A stretch of 64,000 nucleotides of DNA, taken from Malacoraja senta. Its lineage: Eukaryota. The notes beneath the pieces were generated by a model that searched no databases, was not told the origin of the DNA, and worked only from the letters and a program-made list of their open reading frames with translations. Position numbers and translations under genes: made by a program. Positions 36,401 through 61,866 of the stretch are shown piece after piece; positions within the stretch are counted from its first letter, which is position 1, and each line of letters starts with the position of its first letter. The DNA lies in contig CM075992.1 in assembly GCA_038087875.1 (NCBI GenBank), positions 2,792,001 through 2,856,000 of the forward strand, given 5' to 3'.

Positions 36401-36575
36401 GTAAGTCTATGATGTACGAGTCTGGGAGGGGTGTAGTTTAGGCTTTAATTACTCTGCAATAACTGGTGGTATTTGGCTCTTCTGTGTAAACTACATGTGA
36501 ATTTTTGTAGTTGCGTTTCTTTGAATGTTAAACATGTGTAGGCATCAGTAATTTGTGGAAATGTTTTTATTTTAG

Positions 36576-36647
36576 TTATAGGTCGAGGTGGGGAACAGAT
36601 AAACCGAATACAGCAGGAATCTGGTTGCAAAGTACAGATTGCTCCAG
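36576..36647 (+). CDS. KHSRP: KHSRP exon 6 (KH1 GxxG loop)
   Basis: ttttAG|TTATAG...CTCCAG|GTatag, 72 nt; [24 protein letters not shown]. Confidence 0.92.
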
Positions 36648-38552: not shown

Positions 38553-38610
38553 AAAGTGGAGGTATGCCAGAACGATGCGTCTCGTTGACTGGGAATTCTG
38601 AGTCAATTCA
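38553..38610 (+). CDS. KHSRP: KHSRP exon 7
   Basis: ttccAG|AAAGTG...AATTCA|GTgagt, 58 nt; ESGGMPERCVSLTGNSESIQ. Confidence 0.92.
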
Positions 38611-38867
38611 GTGAGTGCAAATGTCTTCCTGATAGTAACGTTGACGTGTCTTGATAGGACCAGCAAAAATATTCCCTCGTCAAATATTCCCTTGTGAAAT
38701 ATCCTCGGAGTTGACTTTTAACTTTCATTTATGTTATTATAAATACAGTAAGCAAGCTGAGTGAAGGCTGTCAGAAACAGCATTAACTGCTGGAGCGAGT
38801 ATAACTTTACCTGAAATGTAAGTAGTTAACCACAGGATGAAATTTAATCTGTCCGTTCTCTTTTCAG

Positions 38868-39039
38868 GACGGCGAAGATGCTACTGGATGAGATCGTGTC
38901 CAGAGGTCGAGGTGGGCCACCGGGCCAGTCTCATGACTCTACGAATGGCCAAAGTGGATCTATTCAGGAGATAGTCATTCCAGCAGGGAAGGCTGGACTA
39001 ATCATTGGTAAAGGTGGAGAGACCATCAAACAACTTCAG
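38868..39039 (+). CDS. KHSRP: KHSRP exon 8 (KH1 end, KH2 start)
   Basis: tttcAG|GACGGC...CTTCAG|GTacta, 172 nt; [57 protein letters not shown]. Confidence 0.94.
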
Positions 39040-39810
39040 GTACTAAAAGGATAAAATCGAAGGCAATGTAATAATAGTTAATTCTAAACGATCCGTTTCT
39101 TGTAATGCAGCCAAATTCTTGGCTTTAATTAGCTTACGTCAACCCATTCTACATCAAAAAGTTTGGGGATCAATTGTGTTGTGATAGCTTGTTCAATGTG
39201 ATTGCCTTTCTCCTCCAGCTCATTTTAGCTGATGTGCTAATGAGGCAAGGGGTTTGCAAGCGTGAATTATCACCGTCCTGCTCAGCTGCACCCCTGCAGT
39301 TGATAATTATAGCAGCAAACCTTAGGTTATTGAAATTCATGCTTGTAGCATTATAAAAAGTTTGTTGGATTCTACAAAGAAGCTGGTCCCATATGTGGAG
39401 GATGAAACGACAGCTTGATATAACTACTCATATTAGCCATATCTTGATCATGTTGGCTGGCCAACTAGAGAAGGAATTGGATTGAGTACCAAACTTCGAC
39501 AACATTAGGACCAAGATTTTTCAAGATGCCGTGATCCGTCAGATTACATCTTTCCGTAAATGCCTTATGCTACCTTTTCATCAGATTCCTCAAATTTACA
39601 TTGTTTTACAAAAATAGTTGTAGAATAATTTGAGACATAGCCAATGTGTATGTTTGACTAGTCCTGAAGTATTGAACTGTTAGAAGTTGCTTTATTGCTC
39701 AATTGGTATTGTCGGCAAGGAATTATTAGTTCACAGTTTAAGCTTTATGGACAGGGGTGTTGCTCCTTTCACACGACGTCGCTGGATAATCTGTCACTTG
39801 TTTCAAATAG

Positions 39811-39909
39811 GAACGTGCTGGAGTGAAGATGATTTTAATCCAAGATGGTTCACAAAGTGCGAACATAGATAAACCACTCCGGATTATTGGCGATCCTTTT
39901 AAAGTCCAG
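39811..39909 (+). CDS. KHSRP: KHSRP exon 9 (KH2)
   Basis: aaatAG|GAACGT...GTCCAG|GTatga, 99 nt; [33 protein letters not shown]. Confidence 0.94.
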
Positions 39910-40378
39910 GTATGATCTTGCTAGTATTTCTGGATTTGGTTATCCAAGAAACCACTCCTCTTGTCAGCAGAAAACTCTGAACAGCTTCTCAAGTTAGTGT
40001 GAAACACTTGCTAAACAGTAATGTACAATTGCCAGATGTGGAATGATTCAATGTTTCACAAAAATAATGTTACCTGTGGCCCTTATTCTGAACCTGATTC
40101 CTGCACAAAATTTGTGCTCATGGTTACAGCTAAAACTTGGAATTGGCCTATTTCAAATGTTATATATTTCAAACTTGGTGAAATTGGATTAAGATTTACC
40201 CGTTCATTTTCGAATAAATCAGCAAGGCTGATCCTAGCCGAAATCTTAGCTGAAGCAAGAAGAAATCTGCATCACCCAGTTTTGAGTGTGGCTCTAAGCT
40301 TAAAAACGGTAACATGCATCTTTGAATTGCTGTGTCAAACAACGCATCAGTTTAACTTTTTATTGTGTGTGGTTGCAG

Positions 40379-40540
40379 CAAGCTCGAGACATGGTGATGG
40401 AGATCCTCCATGAACGTGACCAGGGAGGATTTGGAGACAGGAATGAGTTTGGCAACCGTGGTGGTGGTGGAGGAGGTGGTGGCGGCGGCGGCGGTGGTGG
40501 CGGCGGCGGCGGAGGAGGAGGAGGCGCTGGTGGTTTAGAT
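40379..40540 (+). CDS. KHSRP: KHSRP exon 10 (KH2-KH3 linker with poly-Gly)
   Basis: ttgcAG|CAAGCT...TTAGAT|GTaagt, 162 nt; [27 protein letters not shown](G)22AGGLD. Confidence 0.92.
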
Positions 40541-41644
40541 GTAAGTACAAACAATGATTTTTCCTTGAACTTTTTTCACAGCTTAGGAAAGCAGTTATTA
40601 TCTGTGCTACACTCTAAATGGTTCGTAAAATCGATCAGGTGTCAGAAACCATGAGACAATAAACTAAAGTGACTTTCCTTGAGCTGTAATGTAAACCTTG
40701 GCTTTTGAAATGCTCTAACTTTAACCAGAGATGCATTTATCGCATAAATAATCTCCCTTTAAAAGTTCATCTTCCCACTTTCATATTCCTGTTGTTGCGC
40801 TGGGAGTTGCATTGATACCACCTGGAACTTCTTATTAGCTGATTTCAGAAAAAAGAGCAATATCTGCTTATTGTTCTATGCATAATCCAAAAGGAATAGA
40901 TTTATTCAGGTGGTATTGTGTACCCAGTGAAATTTTCCCTTTTTGTATTTGCTACCATTGCTCTTGGATTACAAAATTGCCCAAACTGCTCTAATTTATT
41001 TAACCCATGATGGTGGAGATGATGGATAATTTGGAAATTAATGCACTTAGATGTATAGGAAATAATTTATTATACACCCATCCCTCCCTTTCCCAAATGT
41101 TATCTTGCACCTCCAAGATGCAGTATTTTGTACTCTTTGCTTGAGATCTTCACAAGCATGAACTTGGTTCTTCTACCTGACTGGCTAGTTACAGCTGGAT
41201 TTTATCTGCTCTTTAGAGCAGGTATGGTTGGATCACAGTGCTGCAGTAATATAGAGGCAGTTAAACTATGCTGGATCTCCAAATGATGCCTACATTTACA
41301 TTTCAATTTAAAGTATTGGCACTGTATTTAGTTGAATTGTGTTGTATCCTCCAAATTATGAGCACATTTCTCATGATTGAATTAAATGTGGAATTAGCAG
41401 CAGATTATTTCATTTTGTCATTGATGCAATTAGTGTATTTGTTTATATATGCAATTTTTATGGTCTTTAGGTTTGGACTAGTTTAGACACTAAATTGTTT
41501 CAATTGTAACCATTTCTATGGTAATTGTGGGCAATAATTGTGGTGCGAAAAGTTAATGGGGGGGGGGGGGGTTGCATTGAGATGCGAGGTTATTAAGAAG
41601 TACATCGGCATTGTGACGTCCATATAAAATCCTTCAAACTCTAG

Positions 41645-41747
41645 GTTCCAGTTCCGCGGCATTCGGTGGGAATAGTGATCGGAAGAAGTGGAGAAATGAT
41701 CAAGAAGATACAAAATGACGCAGGAGTCCGAATACAGTTCAAACCAG
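41645..41747 (+). CDS. KHSRP: KHSRP exon 11 (KH3)
   Basis: ctctAG|GTTCCA...AACCAG|GTcagt, 103 nt; [38 protein letters not shown] loop as in KHSRP KH3. Confidence 0.94.
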
Positions 41748-42128
41748 GTCAGTCCCATTCCCTGCACTCAGCATCTGACACAGCAGTTCTTAAACCCAGG
41801 AGTCCCCTGGATTTTAACACCATACTAGGTGTTTCTGAAGCAAACACAGAAATGGAGCATTTAGCTTTAGTTGATAGTGCACATTTGACATCACTTCTTG
41901 TATTAACCAGTGGAAATTATACCGCTGCTCATGAGTCCTCCCACCTTGTTCCCTGGTGGTGTAAATAAATGTTGGTCCACTGGCATTAGATAGCTATTGT
42001 ATTCCCCGATGGCACAATTATGGGTTGCCTGGGGTGGTATTACACAGAGGCACATCAATGTAACCAATCTGCCAAAGATAGACACACAATGCTGGAGTAA
42101 CTCAGCGGGACATGCAGCATCTCTGGAT

Positions 42129-42156
42129 GATGTTTCAGGTCGAGACCCTTCTTCAG
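42129..42156 (-). ncRNA. Minimal hammerhead motif, antisense to KHSRP
   Basis: Reverse complement CTGAAGA-A-GGGT(CTCG)ACCT-GAAA-CATC. Confidence 0.45.
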
Positions 42157-42637
42157 ACAATCTACCATCTGCATTCCGTACAGATGCTCTGGTTCATTTT
42201 AAACTCTTGTTCAATTACAATTTTTGCCGCCAGTGATTAAAATAACAAATTATTTTTACTTCCTTATTTATCCGCATTTCCCAAACACAAGACTGGGAAC
42301 AGAAGATTTGTTATGTGGAATTTTTTTAATTTTAAGTATTCCTGTGTATTTTTGAAGCTGCAAATGCCAAAGTTATTGGCTGGAATTATGTGTGACTAAA
42401 GAGCACCATTAGCGTTTACGTTTTTTCCTCCTCGGCACAGATTTGATCCCGCATGGTGCAGAAGGTACACTGTGCAGAGGATGGGCGATAGTGTTGCAGG
42501 TTTAAGTCTACAGCTTCTGTCTAGATTAGCAACTCCCTGAAAAATGTGTCCCTTGCAGTGGGAATGGTGTATGGAGAGTGATTCAGTGAAGTGAAAATTG
42601 ATGCCTCCACTTAGGGCTGGAAAAGTGCCCTATAAGC

Positions 42638-43619
42638 AAGTTCGGTATTCCGAAAAACGCAAGGAATTGTCAAAGGTCATTCACTATAAAGAAAAGGCGA
42701 ACGAAGCGCTGGCTGAATAAACTGTAAATTCTCATCTTTATTCATAATTTATGTGTAAAAATATATTTAATCTGAGGAACGGGGTGCCGTGTGGTCACAT
42801 TATAGGAAAATTACGTGTATTCCAGACTGGAACACAGTGATAGTTTCTGAGCCGAATTTCACTATTCTGCTAATTTCAAGACAATGAAATTCTTCCGCCT
42901 CATCTATGAATACGAATGAACAATGAAATTCTCGATTCCAGAGTGACTCCCATAAATGGTCAACTCCTCACCCCCCCCCCCCCCCAAAGAAGAACAGGTA
43001 GCGGGAGAGTGGGATGTAACAGCGAGATTAAGTGAGGGGGGAAGATGCGAGTGGGAGACTGGCGAGCGCGCACACAGGCCCGTGCCTCATCCGCAGCCAG
43101 AATCGAACCCGGGTCCCCGGCGCCGCAAGCGCTGCCGAACTGCCACTGGACCGGACCGACGACACCAGTGGCCCCAGGCCCACAGCCAACGCGGAGAAGA
43201 AGAGCCAACCCCAGCTCAACTCCGCCTGTCCTGCCGAGCCATCGCAGCACCCCGTGTGCATCCCCGCCGATGACTGGCACTCGGCCCCAAGGGGGCCAAT
43301 TGACAGCCACTGGACAAGGAGAGAGGTGCAGCTGAAGGACCCGCCAGAGACCCGGCCCAGGCCACAGACGAGCACGATCTCGCTCACCCACCAAAGCATA
43401 AAACTATAAAAAACGACACAATAATCTTAGCGTTTAACAAAGGAACAATAAATACAGCTAATTCATAGTTTGAAAGCAGTGTTTATCTTACCTAGAGGAA
43501 TCAAAGCAGGAAAAAACAGAAGAAATTAGGGTCTCTTTGTACACAGCTCTATTGCTTCCCAGCAATGTTTCTGCATAGTGACCTTTGACCTAGGCATGCA
43601 CAGTCGGAATACCGAACTT
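42638..43619. mobile_element. Unclassified ~1 kb inverted-repeat-bounded element
   Basis: Perfect 16-bp inverted repeat AAGTTCGGTATTCCGA (42638-42653 and 43604-43619), plus subterminal GTCAAAGGTCA / TGACCTTTGAC; CpG-rich interior. Confidence 0.6.
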
Positions 43620-43905
43620 AAGATCAGGACTGCTTCGAACTTCAGGACACAAGGAGGAATTTTACTGTCATTAGGACTGAGTTTGATTATATTGCTAGCG
43701 ATGAGTGTAACTGACCCAAAAAAACTCAACTTGCTTACCATCTCAAAGCTAACTTTTTGTTTTGAGCATCTGGATTCATTGTTTCAGGTATTGTCTGTTC
43801 CATTTGGACTTGATTTCTGTAATAGTGCAACTGCTATGGAAGTGCTAACATTCACCTTTCAATAAAATCCTTTTTCCCCCCCTCCCCCCTTCTTTCATCC
43901 CGTAG

Positions 43906-44006
43906 ATGATGGATCTACGCCTGATAAGATAGCACATGTAATGGGGCCTCCAGAAAGATGCCAGCATGCTGCACAAATAATTACTGACCTTCTGCAGAAC
44001 GTACGG
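43906..44006 (+). CDS. KHSRP: KHSRP exon 12
   Basis: ccgtAG|ATGATG...GTACGG|GTatgg, 101 nt; [34 protein letters not shown]. Confidence 0.92.
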
Positions 44007-46303
44007 GTATGGAATGGACTTTTGTTCTTGATTTTTCCGTGTTTACTTTGCCCTCTTGTGTCACCACACCACTCCTGAAGGAGGCTAGTGCTCCATGGAT
44101 AATATGCACTTTAGTTGCTTGCCCATTTTAAAAGGAGACAAAAGCATTGTGGCAGAGTATCCCTGCTTGATCCAACATCTACAGGCACTGAATGTAATAG
44201 TGCTGCATAGCAACCCAGATTGGAAACGTTGGCTGCAAACCCCACCTACACTCCTGCTCGTCCTTGAGTATAAGCTACTGCTTTGTACATGCATCATCTT
44301 CCAAGCATGTTGTGGTGTTCCTGCCTAAAACACGACTCTAGTTCAGATCTGGTTGACCAGGCAACAACATTGGGCTGCCTATAGTATCCTTGGTGGTGGT
44401 TGTAGTTAGATGTTGAGGTATCGGTACAATGGGTAGTGCACTTGCACAAGCTGACTTGGACCTGAATTTGCTTATGAGAATGGTAAGCTTTTGGAATCGC
44501 CTGACATAGCAGCAGAAGAAGTCGTCTTGCCTAATAAAGGGCGATAAAGCTTCACCTGACTTATTCCTGCAATGGCAGGGTATGCCCTGTAAGAGAGATT
44601 AAGCTTAAAAATTCTCTGAGCCCAGAAGATTGAGGTGCAACGCAAATGAAATACATAAGTTATATGGAGGTTGATAGTCTAGAGGTAGGACTGATTTCGT
44701 CCCCACACCCCCCAGCTGTTGTGTCGAGAATAAGAGATCACAGTATAAAAATTTGAGATTGGATATTCGGAGATGTGGCCTTCACCTAAAGAATGGCGAA
44801 CCTTTGACATTCTGGAGTGCTGCAGAGGCTTTGTTACTGAGTTTCATGGATATTTGGGCCATTGAGATGAGGGTTTAATGCAAGAAAATGGGGGCTTAAT
44901 GCAAGAGGTTAAACCCTAACCAAGGCTGATGGAACCAGCGTGAGTGACTGGAAAACCTTCTCCCACTTCTGTTTCTTGCTTAAGAAGTAAAATAATTCAG
45001 GGGCGGGTGCAGGGAGGATTTAAAGTTCTTCTGTTTTTGAAGTTAGTGTACAGGACTCATTCACCTGTCTCTTGAGCACGTTATATGTACCTTGTCATGC
45101 AATATCTGTTGAGAGTAAAGGCTAACATTTAGGGTTGATGTTGAGGCTGGACAACCTTGCATTGAGTATTAATCCTGCTTGCCTTTCCCCATGCATGGGC
45201 CGACTGTTTGTGGCATCTTCTGTTTTTATTTCATATTTCAACAGCTGTGGTATATAAACAAAGGATGTTAAAACCCATTCCTTTCTTTATCTGGATTGAT
45301 TAAGAACCACTGATGTATTTTGAGCTCAATTAATATTTGCTGGTAGCTTTTCATGCAAGATGTCATGTGTATCTTGTGTAAAGTCACTAAGTTGTGTTTA
45401 GAATGGCTTTGCCTCCCATGTTACATTGTCCTGTTTCGGGACACAACAGTAAAACAATAAAACACTCGTGACTCTGATACTAATACTGGATCAGTCCCAT
45501 TCTGCTGGCCGCATTTCTGTTAACTGCTGGCATCTTACACTTTGCTGCACTTACCAGCAAAATAAGCTGGCAGTGTGAAAGTAACATTGAATGTCTCAAT
45601 TCTGTGCTGGGGTCAAATATAGTGTCTAACATACCTCCTATACAGTCAGCCCATCCCCAATGAAAATTCTGAAGTAAAGTTTAAAAAAAATTAAAGGTAA
45701 ATTAATTGCATAGCTTGGAATCCTTGGTCCTCTCACATGCTTACTTCGTTAATCAATTCCCCTTCTCCCTCCCTCCACCCCATTTCCATGAAACTAGTAA
45801 ATCAAATAAGACCATGATCTCAGCTGGACAAAGTGGTCAGGAATGTGGAATCCTTTCCAAAGCTGTAGATGCTCGACTACTTGGAGCTTCTAGTATTGAG
45901 GGTGAGGAGTGAAAGCTTGCACTTCAACTCCTGCAACCAGATCAGCTGGGTTTTACTTCACTGTTGGAGTGAATGAGAGAGAGTCTGAAGAGCTGCTTCC
46001 TGTTGTTGGAATGCCGCTCTTCAACCTAATCAACCGTGCAGAGGTAGGTACCCAGAAAAAACACTGGGAACGTAAGAGGGTGACTGGCAGCAATGGTTTT
46101 GTTCAGGTTCAATGCATTCTTAATTTCCCCCAACATTTTCGAGGAGCTAAATTTTGCCATTCTGCATGTGGTGCATTTTGAATACACATTTTCACAGCAG
46201 GTCTCCTGAATGAACAAATTCATCAGTATGTACCCAGTTCCTATTTTAAAATCCTGAGTGTTGGTGTGTGACTTTTTGTATTAAACTGCGTGTGTTTGTT
46301 TAG

Positions 46304-46451
46304 GCTGGGCCATCCGGTCCCCCGGGTCCTGGAATGCCTGGCCCTGGCCGAGGAAGGGGCAGAGGTCAAGGCTCATGGGGCATGGGCCCCCCTGGAGGAG
46401 AGATGGCCTTCTCAGTCCCCAGCCACAAGTGTGGTTTGGTCATTGGCAGAG
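46304..46451 (+). CDS. KHSRP: KHSRP exon 13 (RG repeat, KH4 start)
   Basis: gtttAG|GCTGGG...GCAGAG|GTaggt, 148 nt; [49 protein letters not shown]. Confidence 0.93.
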
Positions 46452-47400
46452 GTAGGTCAAACACCTATGCTTTGACTCTTATGGTGTTCCATTATATTGC
46501 GCGTTTGTCTTTAATATTTATCCGAGACGTATTTTATTACTCATTGGGTATTTTTAAAGCGGAGATTGATAGGTTCTTGATTAGTATGGGGATCGAAGGT
46601 TATGGAGAGAAGGCAATAGAATGGGCTTGAGATGGGAAAATAGATCAGCCAGACTCAATGGACCAAATGGCCTAATTCCACTCCTATGTCTTAAGATCTT
46701 ATGAATACTTGATTTTTATCTCTTGGTCAACAACATTGCCCAGCATTCATTTGACTATACTGGATAATTAGTGGTTAGATTATTACTGCTCCGTGGAATA
46801 TCAGGAGCTGACAAAATTTTCAATTTGTTTGTAGCTATGGTCTGGTATTGTCTGGAGACTATTTAGTTTAGAGTTGCAGGTGGAAACACGCCTGTCAGCC
46901 CACTGAGTCCACACCAACTATCTAAACCTAAGACCTGTTCACATTAGTTTTTATTCCACTTTTATATCCACTTCCTACACACTATGGGCAATTTACAGAA
47001 GCCAATTAACCTGCAAATCCGCGTGTCTTTGGAACGTGGGAGGAAACTGGAGCATCCAGAGGAAACCCACACAGTCGTAAGAGATAGGAACAGAATTAGG
47101 CCATTCGGCCCACCGCCATCGAATCGTGGCTGATTTATCTCTCCCTCCTAACCCCATTCTCCTACCTTCTCCCCATAACCTCTGACACCCGTACTAATCA
47201 AGTCATAGGTGTTGCTGCACTCTGATGCCTCAGTCAATCTCCAGCTCTCTTGCCTCCTTCAATTATCTTGAGTACATTTTTCACTGCTAAATATGTACAG
47301 ACTCTAAAATCGACACCTTTTATGTCAATATTTTGCTTTACTTTGTGGCAGTTGGGTTGTGTTATAGGTGAAACTGAAGGGAATTGCTTAAACTTTTCAG

Positions 47401-47561
47401 GTGGGGAAAATGTGAAGGCGATCAACCAACAGACCGGTGCTTTTGTGGAACTGCAGCGGCAGCCCCCTCCCAATGGTGATCCCAACTTCAAACTCTTCAC
47501 CATCCGTGGATCCCCCCAACAGATTGATCATGCCAAGCAGCTCATTGAGGAAAAGATAGAG
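47401..47561 (+). CDS. KHSRP: KHSRP exon 14 (KH4)
   Basis: tttcAG|GTGGGG...ATAGAG|GTaact, 161 nt; [54 protein letters not shown]. Confidence 0.95.
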
Positions 47562-47620
47562 GTAACTCTCACTTCCATCTGAAGGGGTTCAAGTACGAAT
47601 ATCATTGCTGTGTTTTGTTA

Positions 47621-47925
47621 AAGCCCTGTCCCACGGTACGAGTTCATTCCAAGAGCTCTCCCGAGTTTGCCCTGATTCGAACTCGGAGATTTACGGTAAT
47701 GGCCACACGTCGGTACTCGGGGCTCTCGTGGACATTTTTCAACATGTTGAAAAAATCTTCACGAGTCTTCTCGTGCTTACCTTCCATTAGCGTTACGAAC
47801 CGCTAAGAGACGTCCCCGAGCTCCGACGTACCCGCTACATTCATTCTCCGTGCTTACCACGAGTTTGATTTTTTTTAAAACTCTGGAAAGCTCTTGGAAT
47901 GAACTCATACTGTGGGACAGGGCAT
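47621..47925. mobile_element. PIF/Harbinger-like MITE (same family as 23986)
   Basis: TIRs AAGCCCTGTCCCAC...GTGGGACAGGGCAT; TTA on both flanks; interior shared with the 23986 copy. Confidence 0.85.
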
Positions 47926-48659
47926 TTACACATGATCAAGCATTCTTGGCTTCTCAAAGTTGATCGTATTTGTTCATTACTTTAACGTGTATATTTCTGA
48001 ATTTATTTTTGCATGTTTGAATTTTCATGAATTCGGCCAGACAATATAGGGAATTCCCAATTTGCAGTTTATTCATTGCATGGGATGAGTGCGTAGCAAT
48101 TTGCGGTACAACCGGGAAATTTTGTCCAGTTGAGCATGCCACCTGTCATAAATTCCTTCATATCCAGGATGCAAGTAACTTCTATGCTCCTATTTCCATT
48201 CTGCTAGCAGTGCTGTGCTTAATCTGTGGAATGCACTTAATGCTGTGCAATTCAGGAGCCAGTTGGCACCTTGGCCTGTATGCTACCCCATTTGTTCTAT
48301 GTATCCTTCTGTATCTCTAATTTCCCTTTCCCCTGACTCAGTCTGAAAAAGGTCTTGACCCGAAATGTCACCTCTTCTCCAGAGATGCAGCTTGACCCGC
48401 TGAGTTAATCCAACTTTTTGTTTCTATATTCGATGTAAACCAGCATCTGCAGTTCCTCCCTACACATTTTGTCTTGCTTCCACTTTCACTCCTCTACCTC
48501 TACCATTGTGCTTCTCCCTTGCTTTTGTCTGCATGCTTCCCTCAACCTGCATGCGTCCAAACCTTCCTTAGGACTTAGCTGAGAGGATGTATTATTTTAT
48601 AAATGTAATGCCAGCCATTTAAGATCCAGATAGATGTTTATTAATCCTTTCATTTCCAG

Positions 48660-48760
48660 GGTCCTTTGTGTCCTGTCGGCCCCCCGATGCCTGGTGGCCC
48701 CATGGGACCTTTCCAACCAGGACCCTTCCCCCAAGGACCCCCAGGAGCCCCTCCTCCCCA
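48660..48760 (+). CDS. KHSRP: KHSRP exon 15 (Pro/Gly-rich)
   Basis: ttccAG|GGTCCT...TCCCCA|GTaagt, 101 nt; [33 protein letters not shown]. Confidence 0.92.
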
Positions 48761-49713
48761 GTAAGTAACCTGATATTTTTTACTGCCGTTACTACTTTCC
48801 TGTATACAGCAATTGAGATCTGGTAGATAACGAGGAGCCACAGCTTTTGAATAACTTGGGATTCCACTGTCATTTTTCCCACGCCATTATGTTCAGATTC
48901 TGTCTTTTGGTAAAAGTAGTAATCTGATGGAAGCCCAATGTACCCACTTGCTACCAGTCAGTGACACCTTTCCTGAATGACTTCCTGTTGATCAGTGGGA
49001 AGTTACCTCTTGTTTTGCTGGGAGTGTACCAAAGCCATATGTGCTTGCTTTGGAAAGAAAATTGGACTAAGGCATGACCTTTAACGATAGAACCAGAGTG
49101 TTCAAGGGAGGAAATGTCATTTTCTGGACATTTTCAGTGCAGGCAAAAAGCCTGCGTTTCCCTATCACTTTATAATCTTCCCTCCAAGCTGTCGCCTCTT
49201 GTGACTGAAGTGAGAGGATTGAGCATTGCGATTGACATGGGCTTCACCCACTGCAGATCTTGCATGGGATATTAACCACTTCCTGAGATCTTTTTCACCC
49301 CAATGACCCTACTTGAACGAGCAAGTGTGTGCAGTGTGAACCGGTGAATCAGGAAATCCCTGCACTGTGCTCCCGATAAATTGAAAAGTCCCCATATAAA
49401 CCCGAGATGACTGAGCAGATGACGGGACACTTGGGTCTCTGCTCTCTTCCATTCTGTCTTCTGTCAATTGTTGGTCATTGGCAGAGTCATACAGCGTGGA
49501 ATTGGGCCCTTCGGTCCAACTTGTCCATGCCGACCAACATGCCCCATCTACGCTAGTCCCACCTACCTGTGTTTGGCCCATGTCCCTCTTTGTACCTGTC
49601 CAGATGTTAAATGTTGTGATAGTACGTGCAGGTGAAAAAGGTGAGTGCAGGCAAGGGTCTTTCATAGTTGTGCTGTGAACTGTATAGAACTAACTAGCAT
49701 TCTTCCCTGCCAG

Positions 49714-49811
49714 TCCTGTTGCCGGTGGCCCGCCTCCTCCACACCAATATCCTCCTCAAGGTTGGGGAAACACGTACCAACAGTGGCAGCCGCCTGGACC
49801 CCATGACCCAG
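49714..49811 (+). CDS. KHSRP: KHSRP exon 16
   Basis: tgccAG|TCCTGT...ACCCAG|GTaacg, 98 nt; [33 protein letters not shown]. Confidence 0.92.
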
Positions 49812-51237
49812 GTAACGATTCCCGTTTTCTTGATTGTTTGCGGGGTTTGAGCCACCGCTACAAAGAGCGTAGAAGCACTGATTCATGCCTGGTGTTGTTC
49901 CACACCCACAGGTTCTAACAGGAGCAGGGCTCCGCTGTAAAGTGGCTGGGCGCCTAATTCTGTTTTTCTTTTCCATACTCCCCCCACCCCCCCAAACCCT
50001 CCAGCATCCCTGCGCTCCTTTCTCTTGTGACCATTTCTGCAATCTCTCTTCAATATTTTGACTGTTTGTTCAGTTCCTTGGCTATCAAGCCCTGGAATTT
50101 CATCTCTAAATCGTTTCCACGCGACATCTACCTCACAGTTATAGTCTTTAACCAAATTTTAATCTGATACGGTAGTAATTTTTAGCAGAAACCTTCTTGT
50201 GCAGATGTAGGATTTTGTATGAAAGCAAGGTTTTCTTAATTTGTCCGCCAAGCTTCAATAGCTAAAGCCCATTTGCCCCCGTTCTTGTAATATTGCACAC
50301 TATCCCATTTGTCCCGTTTCTCACGCCGGCTCTTTAAGTTCTAAATTAGTCTTGTTATTTCTCCATGCCCTTGCAAATTATCTCTTTTCCAGAATGTATC
50401 TAATTCCTCCTTGAAAATTGCGATTTGAGTCTTTGGAATACATTTCTGAAATAGTAAATTATAAATCTGGGCCTTTTGCTGATTTCCTCAATTATGACTT
50501 GCGGTTAAAGGGAAACCAAAATTCTTAATATTAAATATACCTGTCTTCTGCAAAAAATGTTTTTGTGATAGTGTTTTGGAGTTCATTTTTGGTTGCCATC
50601 ACTGATAATCTAGACTGCTTTAGAGAACATATAAAAATGCTCAATAGTTTGTGAGATGTGGATGTTGTGGCAAGCCTGATGTTAATTGTCCATTCGTCAA
50701 TTGTCCTTGATTGTGGTGGCATTATTGCCGCGAAGGGTAAGAAATAAACCATTTTGACAAAGGGCCTTTGACCTGAAATGTTAGCCATCTCCTTCCCACA
50801 GATGGAGCCTGACCTGTGTAGTCTTTCCAGCATTTCCTGTTTTTATACTGTTATACCTATTGAGTTTTGTCTACCATTCACAAGACAAGAGCTGATCTGA
50901 TCTCATTTGCTTCTTGGCTGTGCCAGCTGATTGAACCTTTCACATTTTTACTGCGCTATCTATATGCCATCAGTTGCAATTTGCAGAAGAGTGCCATATT
51001 AAGCCACATTTCAAGGTTCCCAAGCTATTCATAAAAGGCTAATTTTATGCTATTATCCCAAGACTTGGATTCATCAATTTACAGGAAGTTTTTCTCTTTC
51101 TCCTGCTCTTTCCCCCCCCCCCCCCCCCCCCCCCCAGCAAATATCTTGAACCTCTCTGAACTTGCCCTGAGGAAATATAACTTTTTTCCCTAATTTATAA
51201 TTTAATCATTTGGAACCCAACCATCTTGATAAATAGT

Positions 51238-51265
51238 CTGAAGAAGGGTCTCGACCCGAAACGCC
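51238..51265 (+). ncRNA. Minimal hammerhead motif with mutated cleavage triplet
   Basis: CTGAAGA-A-GGGT(CTCG)ACCC-GAAA-CGCC (GCC in place of GUC). Confidence 0.45.
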
Positions 51266-51733
51266 ACCTATTCCTTCGCTCCATAGATGCTGCCTCACCT
51301 GCTGAGTTTCTCCAGCAATTTGTCTACCCTCCATGGAAGATGATCAGTGTACATGTGCTCGCAAATCATTAATTCACCCCATTAATATTAAACTGTTGGA
51401 TCTCTAGTTTTCTTCGGGTCCTCCGTGAATGCCCTCGTATTCGCCTATGTAGAAACTTATTTGAAATGGACATCATCTTTAATATCTTTTAAGTGATAAA
51501 TTAAAACGGTCACAGGTTTATTCCTATAGCAGACTTCTTTCTTTGTCTATTTTAACCATTGTGTGTCTTGCCCATTTGATTTTTTTGTGCCTTCTGTGAT
51601 AACTTGTTCTTTGATCTTCTGCCCCTTTCAATTATGGATCATACTTCTGTGTGGTTGGGGGTGAAGATTTAGTGTTTGCAAAATAAGCTCCCTGTGGTCT
51701 TGTGACGTATTAATGGCGCCTTCTCTGGTGCAG

Positions 51734-51850
51734 GCAAACCTCCTGGGGATCCAAATGCTGCTGCCTGGGCTGCCTATTACCAACAGTATTATCAGCAGCC
51801 TGCCGCGCCCGTCCTACCCCAACAGCCAGCTGCTGCTCCACCAGGCCCAG
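51734..51850 (+). CDS. KHSRP: KHSRP exon 17 (Tyr-rich repeat 1)
   Basis: gtgcAG|GCAAAC...GCCCAG|GTaaga, 117 nt; GKPPGDPNAAAWAAYYQQYYQQPAAPVLPQQPAAAPPGP. Confidence 0.92.
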
Positions 51851-52669
51851 GTAAGATGTGACCTGCTTTGTAAGGAGAAAAATCTATCTTCTGCTACTTG
51901 TATTCTCCCCAGGTGTAAATTAATCCATTGGCATTAATATGCGCAAGCTTCCTATTCCTTGTACATTTTAGGAGAAATTTCTAATGGCTCTCTGAAAACA
52001 AAACTTTGTATTTGATGCTGCCTGACCCGCTGAGTTACTCCAGCATTTTGTGTCTACCTTTGATTTAAACCAGCAGCAGCAGTTCTTTCCTGCACTTCAA
52101 AACGTTTTAATGTAAATGTATAAATGTAATAATTGTCTCTTTTTTGGAGAGACAGTGTGGAAACAGGCCCTTCAGGAATAATTTTACACGTACACCAATC
52201 CAATTAACTTATATACCGTACGTCTTTAGAGTGGGAGGAAACCGAATATCTTGGAGAAACCCCATGCGGTCACGGGGTGAACGTACCAACTCTGTACAAA
52301 CAGTATCTGTAGTCGGGATCGAACACGGGTCTCCGGCGCAACAGGCCCGTTTCCGCGCTGTATCTGTAAACTAAACTAAACTGAGCTACTGTAAAATATA
52401 CAAGCTGCAGCAATGTAAAATGATAAGAAATTGATTCATAAACCTCTGGAAGAATACTATGCAGGGTTCATGCAAAATGTTTAAAGAGCAGCCAAAATAA
52501 TCTACAGCAACTTCTCCGCACGGAAGCAGAGAGACCTCTCCAGAACATTACAGTGAGTGGAGGTTAGCAACTTGCAAATTAATTTCAGTCACCGAGCATT
52601 AACTAGGGAATTTCATTACTGATGCATGCATCCATGAGAGACAGACTGGAATTTGTTACCCACAGGGTG

Positions 52670-53185
52670 GGTGATACAGCTTGGAAACGGGCCATTCGGC
52701 CCAACCTGCCCACACCAGCCAACATGCCCCATCTAGTCCCATCTGCCTGCGTCTGGCCCATATCCCTCTAAACTTATCCTATCCATTCTACCTGTCTAAA
52801 TGTTGCGATAATACCTGCCTCAACTACCTCTGGCAGCTCTTTCCTAACACTTACCACCTTTTGTGTGAAAATATTACCTATTAAATCTTCGCCCCCCCCT
52901 CACCTTAAATCTATGTCCTCTGTTGCTCAGTTCCCCAACTCTGGGCAAGAGACTGCGTCTACTCATGATCTTTTTCACCTCTATAAGATCACCCCTCATC
53001 CTCTTGCACTCCAAGGTGTAGAGTCCTAGCCTGCTAACCTCTTCCTACAGCTCAGGCCCCGAGTATTGGCTACATCCTCATAAATCTTCTCTGCGTCCTT
53101 TTCAGCTTGACAACATATTCTAACTTGGTGACCAAAACTGAACACAATACTCTAAATGTAGCCTCACCAATGTCTTAGCAACCTG
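52670..53185 (-). mobile_element. CR1-like LINE 3' fragment
   Basis: Similar to 686-1250. Confidence 0.8.
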
Positions 53186-53569
53186 CAACCAATATTTTTG
53201 AAATAGTCACTTGAAAACTTGCATGTAACAGATGGCAATATGGTACTTACCAGGCAATCACTTGTATGTTGTTTGTGCAGGAGGTGTTAAATAGAGCAAC
53301 AGGAGATTTCCCAGCTTTTACAAATTGTATTGTGGTATCTCACACATTTGTTTGAGAGAACAGGCAGGACTTTGGTTAAACATCGCGTGTATAATATGGG
53401 GCCTCCAGTATAGCAGCCCTCATCCTAGATTTAATGTTCCTTTCCCCGGGTGTTGGTCAAACCGTCTGACTTGAAGATGCGACGGGTGGTGGGAACAAGT
53501 TACCACCTGTTGGTGTCTGTAACAAAGCTACTGTCTCTTTTAATTATCTTTTAACTCTGTTTTCCATAG

Positions 53570-53653
53570 ATCCTTCACAGCAGCCTCCTGTGCAAGGGCC
53601 TGGAAGTCAACCTGATTACACTAAAGCATGGGAAGAATATTATAAGAAACTAG
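53570..53653 (+). CDS. KHSRP: KHSRP exon 18 (Tyr-rich repeat 2)
   Basis: ccatAG|ATCCTT...AACTAG|GTgggc, 84 nt; DPSQQPPVQGPGSQPDYTKAWEEYYKKL. Confidence 0.9.
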   Translation: MLHSSLLCKGLEVNLITLKHGKNIIRN

Positions 53654-54338
53654 GTGGGCATCTTTCATTTATATTTTAATTGTTTATGCATCTAAACTAG
53701 CCTGCTAAGAAATCAATACCTTTCTTCCCCATTCCTTTCCTCAACTGCTTTTATTATCACTCAGGTAATGTTAACTTTTGGCAAGACGTGTTATCCATAA
53801 CAGCACTTTCTGAAGTGTTTCTCCTCTGGTCTTGCTTGACGATACCTGTATTTTACTGCTGACTACTCAGGGTAGCGCATGCCTCCCTTTTTCCAAGATT
53901 TGGAGAGGGGAGCATGGAGCTTGTACCATGGGTTGAACCCATTTGGTTCCAGTGTGCTTTTCCGAGGTGTGTAGATCTATGCTGCTTGTGATGTGGACGT
54001 TGGAATAGCTGGTGATAGACACAAAATGCTGGAGTAACTCAGCAGGTCAGGCAGCATCTCTGGAGAACATGGAACCCAAAATGTCGCCTATTCCTTTTCT
54101 CCAGAAATGCTGCACGAGTTACTCCAGGTTTTTTGTCTATCTTCGGTGTAAGTCAGCATCTGCAGTTACTTCCTACACACACAGAATAACGGGTGATGCT
54201 GTTACTCAACATGTTCTTGATTTTCTCTGAAACTGTCAATGCTTGTACAGCTGCCCAGCTGTATCAAAGCCCCATTCTTCATCTGTGACTGTTCCTTTCT
54301 TTGGGCACCTTTACTTCAAGTCTGTGTTGCTTTTACAG

Positions 54339-54419
54339 GCCAACAGAACCAGCCTGGCCAGCAGCCAGGTCCCCAACAGGATTACACAAAGGCATGGGAG
54401 GAGTACTATAAGAAACAAG
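54339..54419 (+). CDS. KHSRP: KHSRP exon 19 (Tyr-rich repeat 3)
   Basis: ttacAG|GCCAAC...AACAAG|GTaagt, 81 nt; GQQNQPGQQPGPQQDYTKAWEEYYKKQ; four Tyr repeats in total distinguish KHSRP from FUBP1/FUBP3. Confidence 0.93.
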
Positions 54420-55219
54420 GTAAGTGTGCAACATTCATCGTTATCACTGCCATTAAACACATCTGGAGAGCATTGATGTGTAGTGGATATCTCATTCACA
54501 GAAGCTGGGGTAATTGTATTGTTTTTTTTATTGTCACATGTACTGATAGGCAGTAAAAAAAGAAACGTTGCTATCCAGGCAGTTCATACTGTACTTGAGT
54601 ACTATCATAGCCTAGATGAGAACAACAGGCAGTGCTAAAGAAGAAAAAAACAGGATGCCCAATATAATGTTGAAGGTGCAGATGAAAAATTGCAGGGGTC
54701 ATAACGAGGTGGGTTGTAGGATGAGGGATACATCTTTAGCAGATGAGTGGTCCATTCAGGAGTGATAACAGGAGGGAAGAAGTTGTTTTTGAATCTAATG
54801 GCAGGTGCTTTCAGGCATTTGTGAATTATGGTCAAGGGGAGAGGAGAAGAGAATGTAAAGTGTCCTTTTTTAGCTGCTTTCTGCAGGTGTCAAATCTATG
54901 CTAAATTAAAAAAATTCCACTGGTTGTCGAACCCTGAAATAAAAAATAACGCTTTAAAAAACAAAATAATAATAATTGGCGAGAGAAACATTTACCATTG
55001 TTTTCTCTGGATTAATCTGAACGCTGGGGGAAGTTTGTGTTTGATTGGTGCAGCCCGACCCACCGAGTATTTCCGGAGTTTGGTGTTTGCACTGAGGTTT
55101 GCCGGTTGAATGTTGATGGGAATCCCGGCGTGCTGGGCTGTGGGAGAAGGGCGTTGCTGTCTGCGTGTTGGGGCGGGTGACGCGGTGCTGAGTTTCTGCT
55201 CTCTCTCTCTGTCCCACAG

Positions 55220-55395
55220 CTCAGAGTGCCCAGGGGGCAGCGGCGGCGGCAGCGGCAGCACCACCCCAGCCTGGAGCCCAGCCCGATTACAGCGCAGCCT
55301 GGGCTGAGTACTACAGGCAGCAGGCCGCCTACTACGGGCAACCAGGGGCGCCACAGCCCGCCCCCCAGCAGCCACCCGCACAGCAAGGGCAACCG
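55220..55395 (+). CDS. KHSRP: KHSRP exon 20 (Tyr-rich repeat 4); followed by a short terminal exon or read-through to TAG 55429-55431
   Basis: ccacAG|CTCAGA...CAACCG|GTacgt, 176 nt; AQSAQG(A)8[45 protein letters not shown]. Confidence 0.88.
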
Positions 55396-56597: not shown

Positions 56598-56797
56598 NNN
56601 NNNNNNNNNNNNNNNNNNNNNNNNNNNNNNNNNNNNNNNNNNNNNNNNNNNNNNNNNNNNNNNNNNNNNNNNNNNNNNNNNNNNNNNNNNNNNNNNNNNN
56701 NNNNNNNNNNNNNNNNNNNNNNNNNNNNNNNNNNNNNNNNNNNNNNNNNNNNNNNNNNNNNNNNNNNNNNNNNNNNNNNNNNNNNNNNNNNNNNNNN
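56598..56797. other. Assembly gap (200 N)
   Basis: Run of exactly 200 N, typical of a fixed-length scaffolding gap. Confidence 0.99.
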
Positions 56798-58694: not shown

Positions 58695-58700
58695 TTTATT
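58695..58700 (-). terminator. Polyadenylation signal of the AK1-like gene
   Basis: AATAAA on the minus strand (plus TTTATT), about 117 nt after the stop codon. Confidence 0.6.
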
Positions 58701-58816: not shown

Positions 58817-58882
58817 CTAAAGTTCGTCGATGATCGTAGTGATGCTCTGAAAAACATCGTCCTCTGTCTCCTCTCCTTGAAT
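58817..58882 (-). CDS. Adenylate kinase, AK1-like, terminal coding exon (missed by the ORF track)
   Basis: Minus strand long pyrimidine tract, then tcttAG|ATT CAA GGA...GAA CTT TAG = IQGEETEDDVFQSITTIIDEL*, matching the AK C-terminal strand and helix. Confidence 0.85.
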   Translation of the reverse strand: MQGEETEDDVFQSITTIIDEL

Positions 58883-58889
58883 CTAAGAC

Positions 58890-59162
58890 AGACAGACAGA
58901 GAGAGAGATTGAGAGAGGGAGAGAGGGGAAGAGAGGGGGAGGGTGAGGGAGAGAGGGGGAGAGAGGGACAGGGGGAGAGAGGGGGAGAGAGTGGGAGAGA
59001 GGGACAGGGGGAGAGATGGGGAGATTGGGGAAGAGAGGGGGAGAGAGAGAGAGGGAAAGAGGGAGGGAGAGGGAGAGAGGTGGAGAGAGGGGGAGAGAGG
59101 GGGATAGGGAGAGGGAGAGGGAGAGGGAGGGGGAGGGAGAAGGAGAGGGAGAGGGAGAGAGA
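58890..59162. repeat. Polypurine GA/GGA tract
   Basis: Almost purely G/A; serves as the pyrimidine tract of the AK terminal-exon acceptor on the minus strand. Confidence 0.95.
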
Positions 59163-59214
59163 AATAACCAAGCGGTTAGCACAGAGCATTGACAGCAAAC
59201 ACGGAGTGGTTTTC

Positions 59215-59730
59215 ATATTCATAAGTGATAGGAGCAGAATTAGGCCATTCGGCCCATCAAGTCTACTCTGCCATTCAATCATGGCTGATCTATCTCTTGC
59301 TCCTAACCCCATTCTCCTGCCTTCTCTCCATAACCCTTGAAACCCTTACTAATCAAGAATCAATCTGTCTTAAAAATATCCACTGACTTGGCCTCCACAG
59401 CCTTCTGTGGCAATTAATTCCACAGATTCACCACCCTCTGACTAAACATATTCCTCCTCATCTCCTTCCTAACGGAACGTCCTTTAATTCTGAGGCTGTG
59501 CCCTCTGGTCCTAGACTCTCCCACTAGTGGAAACATCCTCTGTGTTTGATCCCATCCATAGATACATAGAAAATAGGTGCATGAGTAGGCCATTCGGCCC
59601 TTCGAGCCTGCACCGCCATTCAATATGATCATGGCTGATCATCCAACTCAGTATCCCGTACCTGCCTTCTCTCCATACCCCCTGATCCCTTTAGCCACAA
59701 GGGCCACATCTAACTCCCTCTTAAATATAG
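59215..59730 (-). mobile_element. Two CR1-like 3' fragments
   Basis: Similar to 2065-2530 and to the reverse complement of 22980-23150. Confidence 0.8.
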
Positions 59731-60055
59731 CTCCACATTAATCCTCCCTGAGATAATGAGCCACCCTTGACCTTGGGACCCCCCTGTACCAAAGCATCAC
59801 AGCATGGTTTGGGAACAGCTCCCATCCAAGACCGCAAGTTGTTATGTTATCCAAGATCCCAGTTGTTATCAGGTAACTGAATCATCCTACCACAACCAGA
59901 GAGCAGTGCTGAACTGCTATCTTCCTCATTGGTGACCCTCGGACTATCCTTGATCGGACTTTGCTGGCTTTACCTTGCACTAAACGTTACTCCTTTATCA
60001 TGTATCTGTACACTCGAAATGGCTCGATTGTAATCATGTATTGTCTTTTCTACTG

Positions 60056-60253
60056 TTTAAGAAGGAACTGCAGATGCTGGAAAATCGAAGGTAGACAAAA
60101 GTGCTGGAGAAACTCAGCGGGTGCGGCAGCATCTATGGAGCGAAGGAAATAGGCAACGTTGCTGGCTTTACCTTGCCCGAAACGTTGCCTATTTCCTTCG
60201 CTCCATAGATGCTGCTGCACCCGCTGAGTTTCTCCAGCAATTTTGTCTGCCTT
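60056..60253. mobile_element. PLE-tail hairpin inserted in a LINE 3' tail
   Basis: Arms about 60089-60160 and 60181-60253; flanked by TTGTCTTT(T)CTACTG on both sides. Confidence 0.75.
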
Positions 60254-60424
60254 GTCTTTCTACTGACTGGATAGCACGCAACAAAAGCTTTTCACTGTAC
60301 CTTGGTACACGTGACAATAAACTAAACTGAAACTGAAAATTGCCTTGGTGTAAATGAATACTTAATGGTCAGCACATACTTGGTAGGCTGAAGGCCATGT
60401 TCCTGTGCTGAGTGATCTATGATC

Positions 60425-60920
60425 ATCTACATCATTAAACTGGAAAGAGTGCAGAGAGGATTTCCGAGGATGTTGCCAGGACTCGAGGGCCTGAGATACA
60501 GGGAGAGGTTGTGGCAGGCTAGGACATTATTCCTTGACGTGCAGGAAGCTGAGGGCTGATTGAAAAGAGGTGTATAAAATCAGGAGGGGAATAGATAGGG
60601 TGAATGTACAGTCTTGTATCCAGAGTAGGGGAATCAAGAACCCCAGGACTTAAGTTTAAGATGAGACGAGCAAGATTTAATAGGAACCTGAGGGGTTCAC
60701 TCTGAGGGTGGTGGGTGTATGGAACGAGCTGCCAGAGGAGGTAGTTGAGGCTGGGACTACAACAGCATTTAAATGACACTTGGACAGGTACATGGATAGG
60801 ACAGGTTTGGAGGGATATGGGCCAAACACTGGCAAATGGGATTAGCTTAGATGGGGCTTGTTGGTCAGCATTGATGAGTTGGGCTGAAGGGCCTGTTTCC
60901 GTGCTGGGTGACTGTATCTG
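60425..60920 (+). mobile_element. CR1-like LINE 3' fragment
   Basis: LERVQR...WNELPEEVV remnants and tail. Confidence 0.8.
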
Positions 60921-61061
60921 TGAAAGGTCAGCGGGTAGTCGATGGGAATGTGGGGAGGGTAACAGAAACAGATTTAGAGTGAAGGGAGAGTGTAAACGGG
61001 TCTTGGACCTGGTTCTCTGTACTCTCCCCTCTCGCTCTGACTCCCCGAGGCTAAAGTCTTA

Positions 61062-61244
61062 TGGGCCTGTCCCACTTGGGTGACTACAGGCGACTGCCGC
61101 AAAATTTTCAACATGTTGAAAATGTTTCCGCGGCAGTGGCGACAATTTTTGCTGTCGTGGGTTGTCGTGGGTTGTCGTTGGTGAATTCCATTAAAACTAG
61201 TCCCTGGCAGTCGCCTAAAGAGCCGCCTAAGTGGGACAGGCCCG
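61062..61244. mobile_element. PIF/Harbinger-like MITE, second subfamily
   Basis: TIRs GGGCCTGTCCCACTT...AAGTGGGACAGGCCC; TTA flanks; same internal palindrome. Confidence 0.8.
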
Positions 61245-61248
61245 TTAA

Positions 61249-61639
61249 TGCCCCTGTCCCACTTAGGAGACCTAAACAGCAACCTCTGGCGACCTTGCCC
61301 ACCACCCAAAAAAAAAATCAAGTTCGAGGTGACCTGCAACCTCCTACCACCTCCCACGCATATGTTGAAAACGTTCCTCGACTATGAAGAAAACCGGCTT
61401 CAACTAGACGTGTGACAAAAAAATGATCGATTTTTAAAACGGCAACGTATTTTAAGTCGAGGCCGGTTTTAATCACGATGATAAAATAGCAGCAACCTAG
61501 ATGAAGCCTCGACCACGCGGAAACCACTTTCGACCATTAGGGAGAGTGACCAAAACCTCCGGGTGACCAAATGGAAACCTGGGTGGCGGGCAAGGTCACC
61601 AGAGGTTGCTGTTTAGGTCTCCTAAGTGGGACAGGGGCT
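61249..61639. mobile_element. PIF/Harbinger-like MITE, third subfamily, abutting the previous one
   Basis: About 58-bp TIRs GCCCCTGTCCCACTTAGGAGACCTAAACAGCAACCTCTGG...; flanks TAA/TTA. Confidence 0.8.
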
Positions 61640-61674
61640 TTACACCGCACGGCAAGACGTGAGAGGGAGCGTAC

Positions 61675-61866
61675 CTTTCTTAGTAGTCCTTTGTTCTCGT
61701 AATGTTTCACCACCGGGACAGAGTCCACGAAGTAGGTTTCAACCCTCTTGCTGATCGTCACCTCGTTGTCGTCGAAGCGGCCGCTGGTCTGGCCGCGGTT
61801 AATCAGCCGCTGCTTCATCACCTCGGGGTTGCAGTCGATGAGCAGCACCACGCTGGGAGTGCTGAA
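61675..61866 (-). CDS. Adenylate kinase, AK1-like (short LID), penultimate coding exon
   Basis: Minus strand ccacAG|TTCAGC...AGAAAG|GTacgc, 192 nt, phase 0/0; FSTPSVVLLIDCNPEVMKQRLINRGQTSGRFDDNEVTISKRVETYFVDSVPVVKHYENKGLLRK with the RGxTSGRxDDNE LID motif of AK1-type kinases. Confidence 0.9.

Follow-up and report, generated by a model that had tools for sequence, protein, structure and literature searches.

We report here on an adenylate kinase gene that ends inside a 64,000-nucleotide stretch of the genome of the skate Malacoraja senta (positions 2792001-2856000 of contig C16, hereafter the window; C11, C16 and the like are contigs of the same genome). With good confidence we identify the two kinase exons of the window as the end of a two-domain gene of the AK5 type that is the sister of AK5, that is likely the copy retained on the 1-beta chromosome after the two rounds (2R) of vertebrate whole-genome duplication, and that likely encodes an active phosphotransferase as its long form beside a short form predicted to be anchored in the membrane. 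We refer to it as the AK5-sister gene. A reading of the window from its sequence only had taken the exons for a divergent AK1-type kinase.

Structure of the AK5-sister gene

The larger of the two exons, of 192 nucleotides (nt), holds the motif RGQTSGRFDDNE within its open frame (61866-61675, minus strand) and matches human AK1 chains of the PDB with E 6e-18 and AK5 domain 2 with E 1e-9, so that the resemblance to AK1 is beyond chance; taken alone it scores 29.6 bits against the PF00406 cut-off of 26.8. The AATAAA that follows the stop codon is the sole AATAAA or ATTAAA before the assembly gap. The exons, splice sites, stop and poly(A) signal proposed by the sequence-only reading are real. A search of the genome with PF00406 gave 11 matches, four of them on the minus strand of C16 (2853687-2891916) and including two P-loop exons. 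With the best database match as a guide we placed exons in 200 kb of further DNA, and the upstream exons that had been expected past the end of the window were recovered, ten in number, which makes twelve in total:

Window 58695..58700, minus strand: AATAAA poly(A)-type signal, 117 nt past the stop
Window 58817..58882, minus strand: last coding exon, 66 nt including TAG, AG acceptor, C-terminal helix of domain 2
Window 61675..61866, minus strand: penultimate coding exon, 192 nt, exon 13 of a presumed 14, bounded by AG and GT, open frame, LID region of kinase domain 2
C16:2856149-2856032, minus strand: exon 12, 118 nt as assembled
C16:2858941-2858778, minus strand: exon of 164 nt, domain 2
C16:2861691-2861656, minus strand: exon of 36 nt, domain 2
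C16:2873731-2873695, minus strand: upstream exon
C16:2879913-2879855, minus strand: upstream exon
C16:2881701-2881611, minus strand: upstream exon
C16:2885712-2885524, minus strand: upstream exon
C16:2886702-2886589, minus strand: upstream exon
C16:2891912-2891740, minus strand: upstream exon
C16:2892981-2892814, minus strand: exon 3, the farthest 5' exon located

An AG acceptor stands at all 12 exons and a GT donor at all but the last; together they code for both kinase domains and the linker between them, with no internal stop besides one frameshift in exon 12. The domain-2 exons of 36 and 164 nt have the lengths and phases of those of AK1 in the same genome. The protein has the marks of a short-LID AK1/AK5-type adenylate kinase (P-loop, nucleoside monophosphate-binding DG[FY]PR, short LID, score above the Pfam cut-off). 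Two PF00406 stretches occur in its orthologues, and the tandem domains stand behind an AK5-type N-terminus whose exons 1-2 are known from orthologues alone. Over 467 residues the product is 94.2% and 94.9% identical to the 'AK5-like' proteins of Leucoraja and Amblyraja, respectively; identity amounts to 82-85% with shark and devil-ray copies, 55-59% with AK5 and 53% with the long form of AK1 described below. In Leucoraja, three RefSeq models of this gene have a shifted final frame and a 40-residue tail, which suggests an indel error in the last exon of that assembly, and isoform X4 takes a different acceptor.

Two ADK domains behind a helical N-terminus are also the architecture of AK5, and the exon count is similar (12 found and two missing here). 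According to the part of the source available, human AK5 has 14 exons, two domains called AK5p1 and AK5p2, and a transcript holding domain 2 only (PMC11626602).

Phylogenetic position

Trees were built from a chosen subset of the fetched proteins (537 by the end), CMPK1 being left out and the CMPK1-like and AK3/4-like matches of this genome (C2110, C1) excluded; a motif filter removed two Anguilla rows from the domain-2 tree, which by design also lacks two ak5l rows and Lineus. In the tree of the N-terminal half (46 rows, 329 columns), ten rows from rays, sharks, Polypterus and Erpetoichthys formed a clade (support 100/98) that was sister to 15 AK5 rows (98/99) and apart from 16 long-AK1 rows, ak5l included. 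The invertebrate outgroups of this tree are long and it is weakly rooted; when they were omitted, support for the split between the AK5-sister clade with AK5 and long AK1 with lamprey was 100/100. The domain-2 tree (41 rows, 192 columns) likewise joined the AK5-sister clade to AK5 (99/94) and AK1 to lamprey (93/92), and forcing the elasmobranch domain 2 to group with AK1 and lamprey cost 8.0 log-likelihood units, a marginal rejection in the approximately unbiased (AU) test (p = 0.040).

The AK5-sister gene falls outside AK1 in both domain trees and in the AU test, and it also falls outside the AK5 clade that holds mammalian AK5, of which it is the sister. The AK1-type identity proposed for the exons must accordingly be given up, and in trees with AK1, AK5 and ak5l the gene does not nest within AK1 as a recent duplicate would. 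AK5 and the AK5-sister gene coexist in Cetorhinus, Heptranchias, Scyliorhinus, Pristiophorus, Hemiscyllium and Erpetoichthys, and all three paralogues are present in each of Cetorhinus, Hemiscyllium and Erpetoichthys. Teleost ak5l was considered as an orthologue and ruled out, both of the cyprinid/gonorynchiform ak5l rows lying inside the long-AK1 clade.

At the level of raw identity, the two window exons share 41-48% of their residues with each of 13 AK1 sequences, and domain 2 shares 48-53% with AK1 rows and 37-52% with AK5 rows. The earlier estimate of about half was thus sound, and this is below the level of a true orthologue because the actual skate AK1 is 83% identical to that of a turtle. 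To judge from branch lengths, domain 2 is nearer to AK1 in raw identity because AK1 evolves slowly and AK5 domain 2 decays.

Genomic context and probable origin by genome duplication

The following features surround the kinase gene:

Window 1672..11704, plus strand: SLC25 calcium-binding carrier-type gene, carrier-exon reading frames, assigned to carrier type only
Window 36572..55395, plus strand: KHSRP-type gene, KH and C-terminal repeat exons, as far as located
Window 56598..56797: assembly gap of 200 N between the KHSRP-type gene and the kinase gene, the order across it being that of the little skate assembly
C16:2931451-2933200: ST6GALNAC3/4-type sialyltransferase gene, beyond the kinase
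C16:2943141-2944231: DNMT1, beyond the kinase

The KHSRP-type gene shares 32 of 33 aligned residues with the third KH domain (KH3) of human KHSRP, and, being on the plus strand, it converges with the minus-strand kinase gene across the 200-N gap, as had been described. In the accessible part of the little skate data (PMC10115646), promoters on Leri_39C are given for Slc25a24-1 (8.68 Mb), the name used there for the gene adjoining Khsrp, and for Khsrp (8.66), St6galnac3-2 (8.55) and Dnmt1 (8.40). The order SLC25, KHSRP, ST6GALNAC-type, DNMT1 is the same on C16 as in these data, and the linkage to KHSRP is real and no scaffolding error. The end of Leri_39C in the same portion, 12,333,785, equals the size of the contig bearing the Leucoraja orthologue.

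For ancestral group M, the part of supplementary Table 3 available to us assigns LER10 (GGA8) to 1-alpha, LER39 to 1-beta and LER31 (GGA17) to 2-alpha, and says of 2-beta 'missing in all gnathostomes?'; Slc25a25-1 is located on Leri_31C (PMC10115646). The source data of the hagfish paper, as far as accessible, label khsrp CLGM beta1 (PMC10972751). As far as these sources go, the paralogous block around the kinase lies on a chromosome that they treat as one of the 2R copies. The human AK5 region at 1p31 we take to correspond to GGA8 (1-alpha) and the AK1 region at 9q34 to GGA17 (2-alpha), the human neighbours of both genes being likewise assumed. With this presumed mapping, the pattern ((1-alpha AK5, 1-beta AK5-sister gene), 2-alpha AK1) agrees with the kinase tree. 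The duplication predates the split between sharks and bony fishes, the clade of elasmobranchs and bichirs having support of 100/98 in the N-half tree and the domain-2 tree being unresolved there. Taking these results together, the AK5-sister gene is likely the 1-beta ohnologue of the second vertebrate genome duplication. The earlier suspicion that the AK1/AK5 family has a third paralogue dating from these duplications is supported, with AK5 as the sister.

The sialyltransferase beside the kinase, named St6galnac3-2 in the little skate, is likely another 1-beta ohnologue with no human counterpart. In the sections available of Marletaz et al. 2023 (PMC10115646), chondrichthyan ohnologues such as wnt6b and cspg5 show the same retention pattern, in chondrichthyans and some ray-finned fish with loss in lobe-finned fish; 24 of 68 differentially retained ohnologues follow it, and the AK5-sister gene may be among the 68. 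Elsewhere in the window, positions 62740-63450 are a long GT-rich microsatellite, a CT-rich tract at 58900-59160 is the polypyrimidine run preceding the last kinase exon, and common repeats fill the rest of the kinase introns.

Distribution of the gene

Recognised by its motif, the AK5-sister clade comprises 34 of the 537 fetched proteins, from 8 batoid, 10 shark and 2 bichir species. With a bichir N-terminal half as query, the best 120 of 645 matches began with 11 clade members followed by AK5s, one shark member ranking 24th among the latter. The protein matches listed, among which a divergent copy could rank lower, included no member from chimaera, sturgeon, gar, bowfin, teleost, coelacanth, lungfish or tetrapod; the genome searched was that of this skate, absence elsewhere resting on the protein level. 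The proposed retention in cartilaginous fish is therefore right for elasmobranchs (18 species) and has to be amended in that bichirs also have a copy and no chimaera copy was found, and the proposed absence from mammals fits the protein searches, at that level.

The gene is not new to databases: orthologues stand in RefSeq as 'adenylate kinase isoenzyme 5-like' (XP_055520166.1 in Leucoraja, XP_032906851.1 in Amblyraja, XP_039626405.1 in Polypterus), and the elasmobranch and bichir 'AK5-like' entries are the same gene as ours. These names are automatic and silent on orthology; 'AK5-like' is also used for the long isoform of the AK1 locus, the Rhinoraja copy is called AK5, and the Leucoraja short isoforms of the AK5-sister gene are named 'AK1-like'. 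The literature searched, which left most subscription papers outside, held no account of the AK5-sister paralogue, the long AK1 isoform or the origin of ak5l.

Lamprey and invertebrate relatives came from a search of 50% clusters. The lamprey relative is a two-domain protein, and those of an echinoderm, a scallop and a nemertean have three or more AK domains. Invertebrate relatives carry from three to nine AK domains in tandem, some with the same N-terminal module in front; in each of three such proteins looked at, an internal domain shares 62-66% of its residues with AK1.

Conservation of domain 2, fold and predicted function

We take the catalytic and substrate-binding residues of AK1 to be K21, R44, R97, Q101, R128, R132, R138, D140, D141 and R149 (AK1 numbering). 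All ten are kept in domain 2 of the 8 elasmobranch rows, sharks and rays alike, in which T39 and V67 are fixed as well. Five of them (R97, Q101, R128, R138, D140) are sites of human AK1 deficiency in the portion of PMC9066714 at hand. Among four chondrichthyan AK5 sequences, R132 and R138 are kept in none and R97 and R149 in one each; in neither of the two bichir copies of the AK5-sister gene does domain 2 keep R44, R97, R138 or R149. The domain 2 of shark and chimaera AK5, with most LID and AMP-site arginines gone, resembles a pseudo-enzyme, and the bichir copy of the AK5-sister gene has decayed in parallel and independently. The AK5-sister gene differs from AK5 in lying on 1-beta instead of 1-alpha and in keeping R132, R138, R149 and R97, which chondrichthyan AK5 has mostly lost. 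With AK1 its domain 2 shares the fold, the catalytic set, the 36- and 164-nt exons and an alternative first exon; from AK1 it differs in being about 50% identical, in belonging to the other lineage of the first duplication round in both trees, and in its chromosome and neighbours.

The structural model of the Amblyraja orthologue shows a three-helix N-terminus, two AK folds and disordered linkers (mean predicted local distance difference test, pLDDT, 74; predicted template modelling score, pTM, 0.41). AK1 is the best Foldseek match, and a domain of the model superposes on AK1 bound to Ap5A or Ap4A with a root-mean-square deviation of 1.0 A. From the conserved residues and this fold, domain 2 is likely an active ATP:AMP phosphotransferase.

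Two copies of Amblyraja residues 1-62 were predicted to pair with a score of 0.63 versus 0.02 for the best of 3 controls, with contacts agreeing to at least 75% and pLDDT of at least 78. For microbial proteins, 21 of 30 homodimers but 0 of 23 monomers attain the dimer mark; the eukaryotic figures are 17 of 29 dimers (animals 7 of 16), 1 of 7 dimers with no older solved relative, and 0 of 30 monomers. The pass of the modelled pair may be a memory of solved dimerisation or docking domains; a Dpy-30 match was weak (E 0.017, under the cut-off) and confined to one of the 7 proteins scanned, the long AK1. The long isoform would consist of a helical N-terminal dimerisation module, domain 1, an acidic linker and domain 2, and may act as a dimeric, possibly scaffolded, AK5-like enzyme of nucleotide buffering.

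An alternative first exon and a putative membrane form

The AK5-sister gene and AK1 each have an alternative first exon, in the same intron and phase:

C16:2862900-2862849, minus strand: alternative first exon of the AK5-sister gene, 52 nt, phase 1, starting MGNCKS, 1.2 kb before the first domain-2 exon
C11:15786942-15786885: AK1-beta-type alternative first exon of AK1, MGVSCS, matching shark isoforms of 211 residues

MGxxxS is a consensus for N-myristoylation. The MGNCKS exon, with Met-Gly at its start and Ser at position 6, joins domain 2 in frame, and 16 of its 17 residues are those of Leucoraja isoform X2, a RefSeq model that is the basis for its splicing to the kinase domain. AK5 proteins, as fetched, included none with a first exon of the myristoylation type. 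For the short isoform we predict N-myristoylation on Gly2 and perhaps acylation on Cys4. It could regenerate ADP and ATP beneath the plasma membrane in the manner of AK1-beta, which in the part of PMC2680645 available is a splice form of AK1 that is myristoylated and located at that membrane. Judged by the sequences compared, the exon of the membrane form of AK1 is older than mammals.

The AK1 locus and AK5 in the same genome

A separate AK1 exists on C11; a KH gene of the FUBP family, for which the name FUBP3 is inferred, lies about 220 kb away. The kinase of the window, on C16 and away from this locus, is thus not the only AK1-like gene of the skate. The locus has itself two domains:

C11:15782487-15864582: two-domain AK1 locus, with an AK5-type front half (15864501-15823320) 40 kb upstream of the AK1 exons on the same strand

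The last AK1 exons were not found on C11, where they fall behind a gap. Joined long AK1 products of 530-600 residues are in the databases for sharks, rays, bichir, gar, eel, coelacanth, lungfish, frogs, turtles, lizards, crocodilians and monotremes (echidna, platypus), and the same loci also give the 194-residue AK1 and MG-starting isoforms of 211 residues. In the skate long-AK1 cluster 11 of 14 members are known from Logan only, on contigs of 1.8-4.3 kb, which implies spliced long-AK1 transcripts. Many teleost 'ak5l' proteins are front halves of 330-370 residues and group with the long-AK1 front half. The first exon of long AK1 occurs as near-identical copies (C11:15884830-15884690 and 15864593-15864453) flanking a gap, one with a surplus base, probably a haplotype or assembly duplicate.

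AK5 proper was not found in the genome searches nor in 400 kb of C10, a contig chosen for its KH matches and dismissed as the AK5 neighbourhood, no match to FUBP-type motifs being present there. FUBP1 and PIGK were not found in the genome searches either, a ZZ search gave no match identified as ZZZ3, a DUSP search did not locate USP33, and a second MIGA gene lies on the small contig C5686 only. As AK5, FUBP1 and PIGK are all unfound and MIGA is on a small contig, the block appears to be missing from the assembly, and a loss of AK5 in skates was rejected on this ground. No batoid AK5 appeared among the best 120 of 392 and the best 120 of 645 matches. Besides the kinase exons, an open-frame cross-comparison of C10, C11 and C16 returned mostly repeats.

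Alternative explanations

Several observations weigh against our interpretation, and we consider them here beside the alternatives. The domain-2 tree does not unite the bichir and elasmobranch copies in a single clade (26% of bootstrap trees). Domain 1, which retains its arginines, carries G18A in the P-loop and D141N in 10 of 10. In the seven 90% clusters of the clade examined no member derives from transcripts (Logan), versus 11 Logan-only members in the skate long-AK1 cluster. The gene might be a duplicate of the AK1 lineage, whether as an enzyme with a single AK1-type domain or as a second copy of the AK1 locus: raw identity brings domain 2 closer to AK1 than to AK5, AK1 is its best match in the PDB and by Foldseek, short Leucoraja isoforms bear the name 'AK1-like', and the AU rejection is marginal while the domain 2 of both AK5 and the AK5-sister clade are long branches. 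Against such an origin, which was already disfavoured and which we hold to be highly improbable, stand the AK5-type N-terminal half that precedes it on its own strand (identity 73% with chimaera AK5 versus 58% with turtle long AK1), the grouping with AK5 in both trees, and the pairing, in the available part of the published assignment, of the 1-beta chromosome with the 1-alpha of AK5, AK1 being on 2-alpha. Hardly more credible to us is an ancient duplication of AK5 on a small scale, whose product reached this chromosome before the split of sharks and bony fishes, with no whole-genome-duplication copy involved. A gene tree alone is blind to the difference between a 2R copy and an equally old segmental one, and the Leucoraja gene has not been placed exactly on Leri_39C. 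The neighbours are nevertheless paralogues of AK5 and AK1 neighbours (KHSRP, SLC25, ST6GALNAC3/4-type), and in the portions of the sources at hand the chromosome is published as 1-beta and khsrp as beta1.

If the AK5-sister gene is a 1-beta ohnologue, it could still be broken in this species or individual by a real frameshift and the loss of exons 1-2, with no active domain 2. Exon 12 has 118 nt rather than 117, the surplus base in a run of C bringing the frame to a stop at residue 380 of 469, and the search of the assembly did not recover exons 1-2. Breakage nonetheless appears unlikely to us. The surplus base is most likely an assembly error, because all 28 full-length proteins that elasmobranchs contribute to the clade keep DGYPR at this site, and because the base sits inside a homopolymer; the remainder is 94-95% identical to skate orthologues with no further break and with intact splice sites; and the assembly is gappy: sequence is interrupted 1.1 kb before exon 3 and on both flanks of the kinase-bearing piece, and the last AK1 exons and the AK5/FUBP1/PIGK block were likewise not found. 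We give slightly more weight, though still little, to a gene serving mainly as a scaffold, whose domain 2 binds nucleotides with an altered substrate range or low activity. The elasmobranch domain 2 has a long stem branch (0.61) and the changes T23S, D41N and E65G fixed in 8 of 8 rows, and the bichir domain 2 lacks the four arginines named above. On the other side are the ten catalytic and binding positions, with T39 and V67, fixed in every elasmobranch row. As to the membrane form, a first exon of the myristoylation type was seen in two skates only, and it shares with the AK1-beta exon little beyond MG, a Cys and Ser6.

Implications for the AK1/AK5 family

We tentatively put forward, as a plausible scenario that may well need revision, that the ancestral vertebrate locus made three products: a long dimerising two-domain kinase, a short cytosolic one and a myristoylated membrane kinase. 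AK1 and AK5 would be two reductions of this locus, therian AK1 keeping the short forms only, teleost ak5l being a split-off front half, and AK5 domain 2 having decayed. The AK5-sister copy would be the only gene of the AK5 lineage with an intact domain 2 and a lipid-anchor exon, and in sharks it would have taken over the lost domain-2 work of AK5.

Ohnologues retained in cartilaginous fish are a class already known, and the AK5-sister gene adds to a known kinase family. Three vertebrate paralogues are filed under the names 'AK1', 'AK5', 'AK5-like' and 'ak5l', and since this naming is misleading, expression data of skate, shark and zebrafish may be credited to a gene other than the true one. 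What textbooks describe as one-domain AK1 is made from an internal start within an AK5-like gene, the long form of which persists from sharks to monotremes. The AK5-sister gene opens a direct test of whether the second domain of AK5 is a decaying copy of AK1, and of the age of the AK1-beta membrane anchor.

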